DNA of 46,106 nucleotides from an uncultured Acidimicrobiaceae bacterium (GCA_964647265.1 CAZYGP010000001.1:1-46106); one strand, 5' to 3'. Counted from the stretch's first letter, positions 1 through 41,965 are shown. Notes: generated from the letters alone by a model not told the origin. A program made the numbers and translations.

Positions 1-47
1 GTAGCGGGGGCGGGATTTGAACCCGCGACCTTCGGGTTATGAGCCCG
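1..47 (-). repeat. attL core: 47-nt copy of the 3' part of tRNA-fMet (anticodon-stem 5' strand through the discriminator base plus C)
   Basis: Bases 1-47 are identical to 41919-41965 and diverge at base 48. The reverse complement of 48-75 cannot supply an acceptor or D arm, so this is a partial tRNA rather than a second gene. Confidence 0.9.
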
Positions 48-123
48 GAGGGACGCTGGGCATCCGGGTTCGATAACTCCCAGATGGGGCGTTTTCCGGC
101 CCTTCTTGCTGGCTCCCTCCCGT

Positions 124-141
124 CCCGTGACCCCCCGTGAC
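124..141 (+). repeat. Tandem CCCGTGAC x2 (period 10) in the attL-proximal arm
   Basis: cccgtgac occurs at 124-131 and again at 134-141, immediately upstream of the GTTTGACAC pair. Confidence 0.4.
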
Positions 142-150
142 GGTGGGTTC

Positions 151-173
151 GTTTGACACACGTTTGACACGGG
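151..173 (+). promoter_or_regulatory. Candidate arm-type integrase binding sites: GTTTGACAC x2, period 11 (left arm)
   Basis: gtttgacacacgtttgacacggg matches 41829-41851 (gtttgacacaggtttgacacggg) at 22 of 23 positions. It has the same orientation and lies about 100 nt from the attL core. Confidence 0.6.
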
Positions 174-489
174 CCATAAGGGCTGCCCATCGGGTTGTCG
201 ACGCCCTCGGCGCTGGACCTGCGCGAGCCCCAGTCCATATGGTCCAGTTGGACCACCGGCAGGATTCGCCGTCCGAGCCGTCTGCAACCATTAGCTGAGG
301 TTTCACGAAAGCCCACTCCCCCATGGCTCATGAAAGGCTTGTCAAGCGGGCTGAGAGGACCTCAGACGCGGCGGAAGCGTCAGAGTACGCCATGGTCGGT
401 AACGCCTCTACGGGACCGGTCAAGCCCACGGGCGCCTCTGTGCAGCGGGCGCTACGACCGCGGGACCTGCACGAAGAGAACGAAACGGG

Positions 490-1154
490 TCACGACCGAG
501 AGGAATCCCCGAATTCCGGGGTGTGTCGCTGAGCGTCACAACTGGAATTGGGCGTGCGGCCTGCCATGCTCGTCACTCCATCGACGACCATCTGGTAGGC
601 GAGTGAGTGGAGGAAGGCGTGGCTGTGGACTCGCTTCTCGATGCCCGCTCGTCGTGCCACAACCTTAAGCATCCGCGTCACCTCGCTCTTGCTCAATAGT
701 CCGCTAGGCGCGCCAGCACCGTTGGCCGCCGCAGTTCTCGGTTTCGGTCGGGTGGTTCAGAATTCACCGTTGACAACCGCAAACGGCGAACAGTCGCATG
801 CCTTGCGGAAAGATCGTCTGGTGAACTGACCGGCGACGACGTCGCTGATGAAGGACATCGAACGCACGAGCAGCGGTCTGAGTGCGCCGCCACGCCTCAA
901 GCCATGCTTTGCACTTCTGGACCGATGCGCGAGCCATGCTCGACAGTCTCGAAACTCAGCCGCTCGCCTTCGATCGCTATCTCAAATGCCTGAAGGTCAA
1001 GCTCGACCAGGGCGAGCCAGCCCTCACGCGAAGACTCGGAGGAGTAGAACGGCTCGGCACTATTGACCTCCTGGCACCAAAGGGGACCAGCGCGTTCGAT
1101 CGGGCTTGATGCGTTACGGGTCAAGGGCTTCGCCTTCATGCTCAGGCGCCCCAA
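490..1154 (-). pseudogene. Decayed tyrosine recombinase (XerC/phage-integrase-like) remnant
   Basis: The minus-strand translation carries integrase C-terminal boxes that are degenerate: GIEKRVHSHAFLHSLAY (the Arg of H-x-L-R-H is lost) and AGRTPNSSCDAQRHTPE (the LGH...Y.H box has R for His and H for Tyr). There is an in-frame TGA at 757-759 and a frame change near 897-900 between the N-terminal part (897-1154) and the rest. Confidence 0.65.
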
Positions 1155-1539
1155 CTGCTTGACGGCGTCTTCATCTGGGTAGCTCGACCAAGAAGCATCC
1201 AGATACCTGCAACCAGCTAACAGATTTCGATGGCAGCGATGTGGTAGTGGGTGACGATGTCCGAGCGATAGAGGATCTCGATCCGATCTGCACGCTCATG
1301 CCTCATCCGTCTGCTGTGAACTCGGTCATGGTGGATCGCATTGCTCACGGCCCTGAGGTGACCCGCAGGGATGCTCTGCACCAGGACTCCACCACCGCGA
1401 TCGAACGGGGCGCGACTGATCTGACCCCAACACAGCGGCGTTCGGCAATCTGTCCTGCACCACGTGGTGGGTCCGGCAGCGAACACGGGAGGAAACGTCG
1501 ACACCGGCAGTAGCTTCTCAGCCGCTAGCGGCCGCTACC

Positions 1540-2519
1540 GTGGCGAACGCCGAATCCGCAATCCCATTGCAGGTCATGGATACTCACAAAGGATGGCGCC
1601 GCGGACTGACGTGGACAACAGCGGCCCTCTCGGAAGGGCAGCTCCGCAACGCAGGCGATTCGGTCCTGGACTTCCGGACCTTCCGGGACAAGTACATTCT
1701 GCCGAGCAGGACAGTCACGGCAAGTAGGCCCAGCCTTGACAATGCGGCAGCCCCACTCCTCCACATGCTCAGCCGGAACCCATACGGCATTGCCAGGTTT
1801 CGAGTCGACTTCGCCTTTGTTCCAGAACGCCTTGCTGTCGAAGCGGACGGTCGAGCATGGCACGACGCCGATCGCGACGCGGCAAGAGATGCATTTCTCG
1901 AAACGCTCGGATGGAGGACCATCCGATTCACCGGTAGCCAGATCTATCGAAACGTCGATGACGTGGTCGCCCAGACCATCGCTGCACTCGCAGATCGCTC
2001 GGACATCGTCACCTTCACTGAACCCGAAGCGGCGGACCGCGTGTCGATCTGGCGACGGTTCTGGAACTGGCTCACTCGCCGAAACAATCGCGACACCGTC
2101 GATCCATACGTCTCACTGACGCCGATCAAGCGGCCGATCCCACCGTGGAAGGCGGATCTCGACAACAACCAACGGCTCGCAGTCGACTCCATGGAAGGCG
2201 TTGTGCAGGTCATCGCACCCGCAGGATCAGGGAAGACACGAACGATGATCGGACGCGTCCAGGAACTCATCTCCCGCGGTGTCCCCGCAAGCCGGATCCT
2301 GTGCTCAACCTTCAACCGCGCTGCACGAGAAGAACTCGAGGATCGCCTCAAGACCCTCGGAATCGGTGATGTCGAGGTTCGGAACTTCCATGCCCTAGGT
2401 CGTCACATCCTCGACGAGGAGGGCCTACTCCGGGCCAGCGTCGGAACCGTGTCGTACGGTCAGTGGAGACGAATCGCAAAACTGGCAATGGACTCGACCA
2501 CGGACGGGGTATGGATTGA
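1540..2519 (+). pseudogene. Truncated DUF559 (Vsr-like endonuclease) - UvrD-like helicase fusion, N-terminal third only
   Basis: A DUF559-like block is present (FVPERLAVEADGRAWHD...RDAFLETLGWRTIRF), followed by a UvrD-type Walker A (VIAPAGSGKT) and motif Ia (STFNRAA). Helicase motifs II-VI are absent, and family resemblance ends around 2515-2530. Confidence 0.6.
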
Positions 2520-41281: not shown

Positions 41282-41314
41282 CGTCGGACGGTAAGAGCCG
41301 GCAGGACGTGCGAT

Positions 41315-41677
41315 CTACCGAGGCTCCTTTGCGATCCACAGATTCGAGTCGGGTGCCATCATCGCAGAGATCCTGCGGTTCTTGCTCCTCGTGCGCCTGG
41401 CGCGCATACCGGCTATCGAGTCGGGGCCCTCGTACGCCTCAACGTGGCAGGGGCACGCAAGGCTGTCCTCGGCCCGCCAATGGGGGCACAGGTTCTTGTC
41501 GGGACCGATGTAATTGCAGCGACCCCCGACGGCTTCCTTGGTGGAAACCCACCTCGGTGGTTTGCGAGGGGTCACCTCGGGACAGGTCCGACGAACCCAC
41601 TCCCTGTCCGATGCCGGTCTCGGCTGGGAGAAAGCGACCGGCGGAGAGATCTGTTGGTTCTGGTCGTCAAACGGCAT
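41315..41677 (-). CDS. Hypothetical Cys-rich small protein (120 aa)
   Basis: The cluster CNYIGPDKNLCPHWRAEDSLACPCH resembles a zinc-binding site. Third-position GC is plausible for coding. No family was recognised. Confidence 0.35.
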   Translation of the reverse strand: MPFDDQNQQISPPVAFSQPRPASDREWVRRTCPEVTPRKPPRWVSTKEAVGGRCNYIGPDKNLCPHWRAEDSLACPCHVEAYEGPDSIAGMRARRTRSKNRRISAMMAPDSNLWIAKEPR

Positions 41678-41828
41678 CGGAGCCTCCCTTTGGCAGGGCG
41701 CTCATTGGCGCTCAACAGACCCAGATCGTACCCCGGAAGATGTCTGGGAGCTGGGATCAACCACCGGACGCTTCGAGAACCCTGTCTGGCGAGTGGATCC
41801 ACCGTGGGAACCGTCGCCTGTTCGCACG

Positions 41829-41851
41829 GTTTGACACAGGTTTGACACGGG
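41829..41851 (+). promoter_or_regulatory. Candidate arm-type integrase binding sites: GTTTGACAC x2, period 11 (right arm)
   Basis: gtttgacacaggtttgacacggg is 22 of 23 identical to 151-173. It ends 67 nt from the attR core. Confidence 0.6.
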
Positions 41852-41876
41852 TCGTGTGTCGCCGGTCCCGGACGCG

Positions 41877-41916
41877 AGAAGGCCCTTCGAGGATGTAGGA
41901 CCTCCAAGGGCTTTCT
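41877..41916 (-). terminator. Hairpin immediately 3' of the tRNA (island-encoded)
   Basis: agaaggcccttcgagg - atgtagga - cctccaagggctttct pairs 14 of 16 bp and begins 2 nt after the tRNA 3' end on the minus strand. No clear U-tract follows. Confidence 0.5.
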
Positions 41917-41918
41917 TC

Positions 41919-41965
41919 GTAGCGGGGGCGGGATTTGAACCCGCGACCTTCGGGTTATGAGCCCG
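41919..41965 (-). repeat. attR core (3' 47 nt of the tRNA), identical to 1-47
   Basis: It is an exact 47 of 47 match with the window start. Confidence 0.9.

Follow-up and report, generated by a model that had tools for sequence, protein, structure and literature searches.

A probable 41.9-kb cargo island in the initiator tRNA-Met gene of an uncultured Acidimicrobiia-like actinobacterium

Islands that lie in tRNA genes have been collected on a large scale by Islander, which lists 3919 islands, 2083 of them of type A and 125 in tandems (Hudson, Lau and Williams 2015, PMC4383910). Here we describe a locus that fits the definition of the anticodon-centred ‘A’ class of that collection. It takes up most of contig CAZYGP010000001.1 (positions 1-46106, assembly GCA_964647265.1) of an uncultured Acidimicrobiaceae bacterium, a stretch of 46,106 nucleotides that we call the window. 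Positions 48-41918 are probably an island integrated site-specifically into the 3' half of the gene for initiator tRNA-Met (tRNA-fMet), a unit of 41,918 bp when one core is counted. As in the A class (PMC4383910), there is an intact tRNA gene (tDNA), a displaced 3' fragment in direct orientation, an internal tyrosine integrase and an identity block that runs from the anticodon stem to the 3' end, and the cargo of host benefit and the tandem arrays are also familiar from that class. The locus stands apart from the class in its host, which is of the uncultured Acidimicrobiia type, in its initiator tRNA target and in a 36-kb block of redox and central-metabolism genes in place of virulence, resistance or phage genes.

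Actinomycete integrative and conjugative elements (AICEs) and many temperate phages also have int-xis at a tRNA gene and share an identity block of about 45-60 bp. Like the AICEs pSAM2 and SLP1, the island belongs to Actinomycetota, carries int-xis at one end by the tRNA and has an att identity of tens of base pairs that reaches the tRNA 3' end. Still, it does not belong to that group: it is far larger than typical AICEs, Pfam finds no Rep, FtsK/SpoIIIE-type Tra, Nudix or spread genes in it, and its integrase is at most 36% identical to those of the plasmid collection. The Mesorhizobium symbiosis island at tRNA-Phe likewise joins a P4/lambda-type integrase at a tRNA gene to a large metabolic block that alters the physiology of the host; it is about 500 kb long and self-conjugative, whereas the island described here is 42 kb long and no transfer genes were found in it. 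The integrase system would work like the lambda/P4 type. Salmonella genomic island 1 (SGI1; PMC2297512), an integrative mobilizable element, is similar in that int and xis are its mobility genes, cargo dominates and integration occurs in tandem at one site. In contrast to SGI1, which targets the end of a protein-coding gene, the island uses a tRNA gene, and neither a relaxase nor any mobilisation gene was recognised in it.

The interval is bounded by two copies of a 47-mer, GTAGCGGGGGCGGGATTTGAACCCGCGACCTTCGGGTTATGAGCCCG, at 1-47 and 41919-41965, which agree at 47 of 47 positions. A reading of the window made earlier from its sequence alone (the sequence-only reading) had reported this identity, and the window indeed holds these two copies and no third, even with up to three mismatches allowed; two matches to the 47-mer were reached in 0 of 100 shuffles. 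ARAGORN calls a single tRNA in the window, a tRNA-Met(CAT) at 41919-41993 on the minus strand, with an Rfam tRNA score of 65.6 bits, and Rfam finds no other RNA family in the window. Read from the sequence, this tRNA has a C1xU72 mismatch, an A11:U24 pair and three G:C pairs (G29-G31:C39-C41) that close the anticodon stem. Such features characterise initiator tRNAs of bacteria, and we take the gene as the integration target. The repeat corresponds to linear tRNA nt 29-75. It thus takes in four of the five bases of the anticodon-stem 5' strand and everything from the loop through the variable and T arms and the 3' acceptor strand up to the discriminator and one C beyond it. The attR core (41919-41965, minus strand) is the 3' 47 nt of the intact tRNA, as had been read from the sequence. 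The attL core (1-47, minus strand) is the displaced 3' fragment of the same gene; the earlier statement that it cannot be completed into a tRNA holds up, since none is callable there even when the recovered left flank, described below, is added. An intact tDNA and a displaced fragment of that same tDNA in direct orientation therefore bound the interval, which is the arrangement by which Islander recognises an island.

The sequence-only reading had allowed that further copies of the 47-mer inside the interval might reveal a smaller element. A relaxed blastn-short search of the window found no degenerate internal core, the best internal match being a 12-nt chance match, and the whole 75-nt tRNA, used as query in a relaxed search of the window, gave internally only chance matches of 8-14 nt. 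A smaller true element was thus rejected: there is no full or degenerate internal core, and no internal site for the arm motif introduced below. Abutting the attR core, a GC-rich hairpin at 41876-41918 (fold -13.1 kcal/mol, z = -2.7) lies downstream of the restored tRNA, and comparable hairpins precede the core in related loci too.

Beside the tRNA lies a module of three genes. The tyrosine integrase gene int1 (40157-41281, plus strand; the longest open reading frame (ORF) starts at 40091) encodes a product of 374 aa (P0001) with the Pfam domains Arm-DNA-bind_4 (PF14657; 34.2 bits against a cutoff of 22.3), Phage_int_SAM_3 (PF14659) and Phage_integrase (PF00589). The last of these scores 88 bits, and it is for a tyrosine integrase with this domain, Xer and integron types excepted, that Islander looks inside an island. 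The residues R198/R199, K236, H310, R313, H336 and Y346 are present, and all six positions are invariant in 16 homologues of 59-72% identity. Upstream, xis (39872-40084, plus strand) encodes a 70-aa HTH_17 protein of the excisionase or recombination directionality factor type (Pfam HTH_17, 3.6e-11; PHROG excisionase and recombination directionality factor families). An xis-integrase pair with intact catalytic residues had been noted near the tRNA, inside the repeat-bounded segment, and this description stands, with 637 nt between the int1 stop and the tRNA 3' end. Divergent from xis, a 70-aa helix-turn-helix (HTH)/excisionase-like DNA-binding protein (39531-39743, minus strand; phrog_597 at 1e-9, phrog_2790) is a putative regulator of the module. 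The intergenic region with the divergent promoters (39766-39825) holds an imperfect 29-nt palindrome, seen as an inverted repeat with a DNA fold of z = -4.9, which is likely the operator of an excision switch. Between int1 and attR there is also a 120-aa ORF (41315-41677, minus strand) with no Pfam or PHROG match, whose homologue occurs only in contig L132, at 70%.

The ends of the interval carry putative arm-type sites for this integrase. The 9-mer GTTTGACAC occurs twice at an 11-bp pitch in the P' arm (151-170, plus strand), 104 nt inside attL, and twice at the same pitch in the P arm (41829-41848, plus strand), 70-90 nt from the core. These two pairs, in the same orientation and just inside each end, account for every exact occurrence in the window, four against an expected 0.18, and a count of four was reached in 0 of 100 shuffles. 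The pairs are likely the arm sites of int1, which would bind them through its N-terminal domain. If the element were circularised, it would present an attP with arm pairs on either side of the 47-bp core, the anatomy expected for an arm-binding integrase. Together with the catalytic residues and the N-terminal arm-binding domain, these repeats mark int1 as a predicted heterobivalent (lambda-type) tyrosine integrase. A second tandem in the P' arm, two copies of CCCGTGAC at a 10-bp pitch (124-141, plus strand), is visible in the sequence and was picked up by the tandem-word scan; it is possibly the site of an accessory protein, which is speculative.

The window comes from a stromatolite metagenome (SRR3310977, PRJNA315555), its host being an uncultured Acidimicrobiia-like actinobacterium, and represents one complete contig of 46106 bp from a metagenome-assembled genome (MAG). 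It starts exactly at attL because the assembler stopped at the repeat, so the left flank was hidden from the sequence-only reading, as that reading itself had pointed out. MEGAHIT k127 contigs of the same run extend the picture on both sides. One of them, L003, equals window 1-12173 with 2 mismatches (99.98%) and continues for 146 nt to the left; another, L001, equals 35919-41996 exactly and so reaches from the island end across the core to beyond the complete tRNA. Three Logan contigs, L002, L004 and L184, match the window without a difference over their own lengths.

The 146 nt to the left of base 1 (L003 12174-12319) encode the C-terminus of an integrase, LPGMQADAARTFEGLIAAGR, followed by a stop. 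This peptide can be aligned to the C-termini of family integrases at other loci, and its PGMQ-A-[DE]-A-A motif is found in 120 of 120 int1 homologues among the matches listed. After the stop of this second integrase gene, int2, come three 12-bp CCGGTRGARG repeats, then a hairpin (-22.6 kcal/mol, z = -8.2) and then the core. Since the left flank holds the 3' end of another integrase gene, 1-47 probably represents a junction within a tandem array. The DNA to the left of base 1 is not chromosome: attL itself is real, and its flank is the end of a second integrase-bearing element. Thus 1-47 would be a hybrid junction between that left element, of which the last 20 int2 codons are visible, and the element at 48-41918, which we call island 1. 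Island 1 has its own integrase and its own tDNA fragment, and the left element shows its last 20 integrase codons, its repeats, its hairpin and the shared core.

The tandem 12-bp repeats of this flank, CCGGTAGAGGAT, CCGGTGGAAGCA and CCGGTAGAAGGA with a fourth, GGTAGAAG, stand where the arm motif of the family, GTTTGACA, would be. This suggests a second arm-site specificity aimed at the same tRNA. Island 1 would then be the tRNA-proximal member of the array, with a left neighbour that has its own, different putative arm repeats. The int2 C-terminus is not among the 120 listed int1 homologues, and a 43-aa query built from the family consensus and the real tail returned, for the rest of int2, short fragments only and no exact match. 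Similar repeats, (C/G)AGTAGAA or GTGTAGAA, also at a 12-bp pitch, were seen in contigs L113 and L150.

To the right of the tRNA, the window continues into a chromosomal flank outside the island (42098-46106), where Pfam assigns two genes: one on the minus strand for a metallo-beta-lactamase (MBL)-fold hydrolase (42098-43231) and one on the plus strand for a P-type ATPase (43698-46106), the latter truncated where the contig stops. An exact-product search with the MBL gene gave no match, this version being present only in the NCBI contig. Two Joint Genome Institute (JGI) contigs, L185 and L186, carry an MBL orthologue of 92% amino acid identity and keep the order ATPase, MBL, tRNA-fMet of the window. 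Within 10 kb beyond the tRNA in L185 and L186, neither int/xis nor a second core nor any of the island genes g01-g40 occurs. In L187, a k127 contig of the same stromatolite run, a flank 99.5% identical to that of the window is followed by the tRNA and then by unrelated DNA, 268 nt without a match to the other sequences compared. From these three contexts it follows that close relatives lack the island at this site, as the Islander definition asks, and that the site is polymorphic within the community. The sequence-only reading had proposed that relatives be searched for an unoccupied site, and L185 and L186 supply it, since they keep flank and tRNA-fMet without int, xis, second repeat or cargo. 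By analogy with these two contigs, the native left flank of the array would resemble their 89-aa ORF and their RibD_C and MgtC genes.

That reading had also named a finding that would speak against an island, namely the same 42-kb gene order in relatives without int, xis and repeat beside this tRNA. We compared the synteny of 80 genomic loci with an orthologue of the Rieske-TPP (thiamine pyrophosphate) gene of the cargo, the best at 82% identity in Acidimicrobiia MAGs. An integrase, a tRNA-fMet or the flank genes of the window lie near the Rieske-TPP gene in 0 of the 80, so that no cargo locus was found at tRNA-fMet.

L185 and L186 also carry, after the tRNA-fMet, an array of tandem 195-202-bp units (L185 11289-11746, 2.3 copies; L186 12152-12971, 4.2 copies). 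The array starts inside the T arm; each unit opens with GGTTCAAATCCCGCCCCCGCTAC and a hairpin and also contains an inverted piece of the T arm. Integration may have occurred there repeatedly, at a T-arm sublocation, and left these units as scars, or they could be a small repeat element derived from a tRNA.

Island 1 belongs to a large integrase family with a shared target. Over 4000 homologues of int1 were found, the closest of them 60-74% identical, and those named by source are mostly from Acidimicrobiia/Acidimicrobiales. In many Actinomycetota contigs, homologues with about 42-70% identity are neighbours of tRNA-fMet and keep the orientation seen here; three long contigs (63-67% identity) show xis, int, a short gap and initiator tRNA-Met on the opposite strand, and tRNA-fMet follows downstream of int in many of 80 metagenome loci. 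Displaced tRNA fragments of 43-53 nt bound elements of 7.3 kb (L102), 12.7 kb (L113) and 13 kb (L118), and such fragments mark tandem arrays in L093 and L107. We had considered the gene left of attL in L113 as a second integrase and rejected it, because it encodes a CcdA-like membrane protein; L113 is not evidence of a tandem array. The arrangement of a GTTTGACA pair at an 11-bp pitch, a hairpin and the core is kept in at least 20 related loci. The arm motif of L152 matches GTTTGACAC exactly, and L118 has an equivalent arm pair at +112 of its own attL. The regulator-xis-int module is kept in about 37 related loci, none of which shares any of the metabolic cargo of the window. With cores, an intact tRNA, int inside, arm pairs at both ends and the same target across the family, the attL-island-attR structure of about 42 kb proposed from the sequence is well supported.

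The siblings (L102, L113, L118, L093, L107 and L085-L088) are thus like island 1 in module, tRNA-fMet target, fragments of 43-53 nt, GTTTGACA pairs with hairpin, and tandems. They differ in measuring 7-13 kb where both ends are visible and in their cargo, which is of the defence or selfish kind (AIPR, an Eco57I-type methylase, Abi_C, AbiEii, NgoMIV restriction-modification, a Dcm methylase and transposases) and includes none of the metabolic genes of the window. In L085/L086 and L087, the same integrase (P0045) and island end lie at the same tRNA-fMet in different assemblies, and the chromosomal side to the right of the tRNA (11848-11923) differs by an insertion of about 6-7 kb with Rieske/VanA oxygenase genes and an ISL3 transposase. 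In other lineages, too, that locus therefore varies on its tRNA-distal side. The 3.6-kb contig L137 holds two integrase C-termini, LPGMQAQAAEQFAALLRSG, at 381-437 and 2309-2365, about 1.9 kb apart, and may be another tandem, of very small elements.

We propose a model in which the integrase would bind the tandem GTTTGACAC arm sites in both attP arms and also the inverted repeat formed by the anticodon stem. Strand exchange in or near the anticodon loop would then insert the circle, whose own copy of tRNA nt 29-75, together with the hairpin, would restore the gene at attR, and the displaced chromosomal 3' fragment would stay behind at attL. In the reverse reaction, Int and Xis would release a circle of 41.9 kb, presumably under control of the putative regulator. 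No genes for replication, conjugation or virions were found among the called ORFs, and movement between cells must therefore depend on something else.

The cargo of about 36 kb is metabolism typical of the lineage. The Pfam scans took in all called ORFs, and the PHROG comparison covered the 10 ORFs nearest the ends. The left boundary is formed by a truncated nuclease-helicase gene (1576-2613, plus strand), DUF559/MTES_1575 restriction endonuclease-like with a partial UvrD domain (UvrD-helicase profile positions 2-94 of 271; PHROG DNA helicase), which is called in L003 and is probably a decayed gene of the element. At the other end, a 79-aa ORF (39144-39383, plus strand), annotated by Pfam on L001 as a piece of a CitMHS transporter and without a PHROG match, is probably gene debris between cargo and mobility module. 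These two remnants bracket the cargo and may be seams of its acquisition by a smaller ancestral element.

Cargo block 1 (2804-13711; Pfam) is of thiol-redox and membrane character, with a major facilitator superfamily transporter, a CcdA/DsbD_TM-like protein, two redoxins, two membrane paralogues without a family, DUF3179, DUF547, an acyltransferase and a pyridine-nucleotide disulfide oxidoreductase. The membrane proteins, of 309 and 215 aa (5745-7305), are adjacent, multi-pass and without a Pfam family, and lie among the redoxin genes; they look like paralogues by shared motifs read by eye, and their homologues adjoin cargo genes in L049. EgtD-, EgtB- and EgtA-like genes of the ergothioneine type follow (14525-18167, minus strand): a histidine methyltransferase (Methyltransf_33, 4e-108), a DinB_2 plus FGE-sulfatase protein and a GCS2 ligase, by their Pfam matches. 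We infer the Egt names from domain architecture. None of the papers searched links ergothioneine genes to a genomic island.

Cargo block 2 (18209-26812; Pfam) contains a second DUF3179 protein, DUF5996, a Crp-family regulator, an AhpD-like CMD protein, YjeF_N, a ROK glucokinase, SRPBCC, two DsbA-like proteins and a histidine phosphatase. The two DUF3179 paralogues (8119-9552, minus strand, and 18209-19672, plus strand) are 9 kb apart and 68% identical over 353 residues; both have secretion-like N-termini, and copies stand beside the same redox genes in related contigs. The pentose-phosphate cluster of tkt, tal, gnd-like and zwf genes (26797-32546, minus strand; Pfam) comes next. A single in-frame TAG interrupts zwf (26797-28170, minus strand) at 27094-27096, with the reading frame continuing behind it. 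Two other contigs, Logan L184 and one of 5-10 kb, encode the same truncated product of 358 aa, and so the stop does not look like a consensus error.

Cargo block 3 (32425-38684; Pfam) encodes a GH15 glucoamylase/glucodextranase, the Rieske-TPP fusion enzyme, an EgtC-like class-II amidotransferase and an AhpC/TSA-like protein, bringing the redoxin/AhpC-type proteins of the island to three in all, beside the two DsbA-like ones. In the fusion enzyme (35013-37073), a Rieske [2Fe-2S] domain is joined to a full TPP enzyme of the pyruvate-oxidase/acetolactate-synthase type. Relatives of it are encoded in 587 of 599 pattern matches in species-representative genomes, mostly of Acidimicrobiia, with further carriers in Acidobacteriota, Poribacteria, Nitrospirales and one cyanobacterium.

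How firmly this interval can be read as an integrated island depends on three other explanations, one being that the copy at 1-47 comes from a contig broken or looped at a repeated k-mer, as with a circular replicon or a mis-join at the tRNA. In favour of such an artefact, the contig, which is the whole window, opens precisely with base 1 of the repeat, and the assemblies disagree on the join to the right flank. Set against this, the independent contig L003 crosses the left copy with 146 unique nt on its left and 12.1 kb on its right (99.98%), and the k127 contig L001 connects the island, by way of the core, with the 5' half of the tRNA. Both junctions exceed the 47-bp repeat and are spanned by 127-mers, and an artefact is largely refuted. 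Equally remote is a prophage, an AICE or an integrative and conjugative element (ICE) of the type IV secretion system (T4SS) type whose transfer or virion genes went unrecognised, an idea that the AICE/temperate-phage layout of the window and several ORFs without annotation would accommodate. Pfam finds in the called ORFs no capsid, portal, terminase or tail domain and no Rep/primase domain of the RepSA, RepAM or prim-pol type, nor any FtsK/SpoIIIE Tra, relaxase, type IV coupling protein (T4CP) or VirB4/VirD4 domain, PHROGs match only int, xis, DNA-binding and helicase families among the 10 end-proximal ORFs, and the unannotated ORFs are short or are membrane paralogues amid redox genes. The integrase also has no near relative in such elements, its nearest match being at most 40% identical in 2.9 M viral contigs, at most 34% in phage records and at most 36% in plasmid records, and on these identities a phage or plasmid origin was rejected. 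The element is accordingly a cargo island, with regulator-xis-int as its only mobility genes, and neither a prophage nor a conjugative element.

A third explanation takes the element as fixed and composite: a small element (about 48-2613 plus 38.7-41.9 kb) would have settled at tRNA-fMet and captured 36 kb of host metabolism, and would now be decaying and immobile. Several observations that weigh against the integrated island of 41.9 kb lend themselves to this account. Cargo genes occur in partial, reordered clusters on Acidimicrobiia contigs free of int (L006, L007, L049 and L084); the cargo is therefore lineage-typical and not exotic, and could be captured host DNA or an old resident. At 41.9 kb, the interval is three to six times as long as the siblings with both ends visible, which measure 7-13 kb and carry defence rather than metabolic genes. 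There are signs of decay in the in-frame stop of zwf and in the truncated helicase (to 2613) and transporter fragment (39144-39383) that bracket the cargo. Base composition offers no contrast: G+C and codon-position G+C of the island are indistinguishable from those of the 4-kb flank and skew is also flat, which makes a composition test for an island uninformative. Even so, the cores are identical at 47 of 47 positions and the four arm 9-mers are exact, whereas the attL and arm sites of an inactive relic would drift. The genes for integrase, excisionase and regulator are intact, with catalytic residues invariant, and the site is polymorphic within the same metagenome. Captured cargo alone would, moreover, not stop Int and Xis from excising the whole interval. 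We therefore consider a fixed composite unlikely, though clearly less remote than the other two explanations, and hold to a site-specifically integrated island as the probable reading.

Two further points against that reading concern its edges. The in-island hairpin (41876-41918) closely resembles, at 91-97% identity, the one that comes after tRNA-fMet in the island-free contig L185. Because of this resemblance, the identity between attP and a naive attB may exceed 47 bp, and it is the neighbouring element, not necessarily the integrase, that sets where the 47-bp identity ends on the left. The sequence-only reading had taken the repeat as the footprint of an integrase that crosses over in the anticodon-loop region; its course from anticodon stem to 3' end agrees with this. 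On the right, the island end in L001 continues 4 nt beyond the tRNA and then meets an orthologous flank that has diverged (MBL gene 89% identical in nucleotides), and the join of island and right flank in the window (41997-46106) is not reproduced in the European Nucleotide Archive (ENA) assembly (L001 6080-6316, L187). One tRNA in one metagenome thus shows three joins: island 1 with flank A in the window, island 1 with flank B in L001, and a variant of flank A with other DNA (X) in L187. Either three strains with a hypervariable locus coexist, or the window is a strain chimera across an identical stretch of about 78 nt, the tRNA and a little more. The 4.1 kb to the right of the tRNA may then be of a different strain origin than the island. 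A chimera of this kind would leave attL-island-attR intact, because L003 and L001 support it independently.

The island is genuine, well delimited and of a known kind, and it reveals no new mechanism. Mildly unusual are its cargo of about 36 kb of redox and central metabolism, and the specificity for initiator tRNA across a large uncharacterised integrase clade with a shared arm motif; mildly unusual, too, is the hypervariability of the locus within one microbial mat, which is evident. For the family, the comparison yields an attP anatomy of GTTTGACA arm pairs at an 11-bp pitch, a hairpin, a 47-bp tRNA-fMet core and a three-gene module. Since the recovered initiator-tRNA sequences of different genomes are nearly identical, this module could serve as an integration tool in Actinomycetota. 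Island finders that rely on composition would miss this island. The tRNA-fMet gene should be flagged as a hotspot of hypervariability at which contigs of MAGs may be chimeras of several strains.

It is a tempting, if tentative, thought that the element is an active shuttle, in which an initiator-tRNA module free of transfer genes moves physiological modules between co-resident strains; we hold this to be possible and considerably less secure than the island itself. If it were true, the module would be widespread in uncultured Acidimicrobiia and other Actinomycetota. The cargo would amount to a self-contained oxidative-stress package of ergothioneine, thiol-redox functions and an NADPH-regenerating pentose-phosphate pathway, the latter fed by glucoamylase and glucokinase. 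One island end beside two diverged right flanks would then be the record of a very recent transfer.

In a broader context, the locus offers a clean example of a fully delimited, tRNA-borne island in a poorly studied, uncultured actinobacterial lineage. It indicates that 42 kb with genes such as tkt, tal, zwf, gnd and egt, apparently core metabolism, can belong to the accessory genome and vary from strain to strain, which bears on how metabolism is inferred from MAGs.

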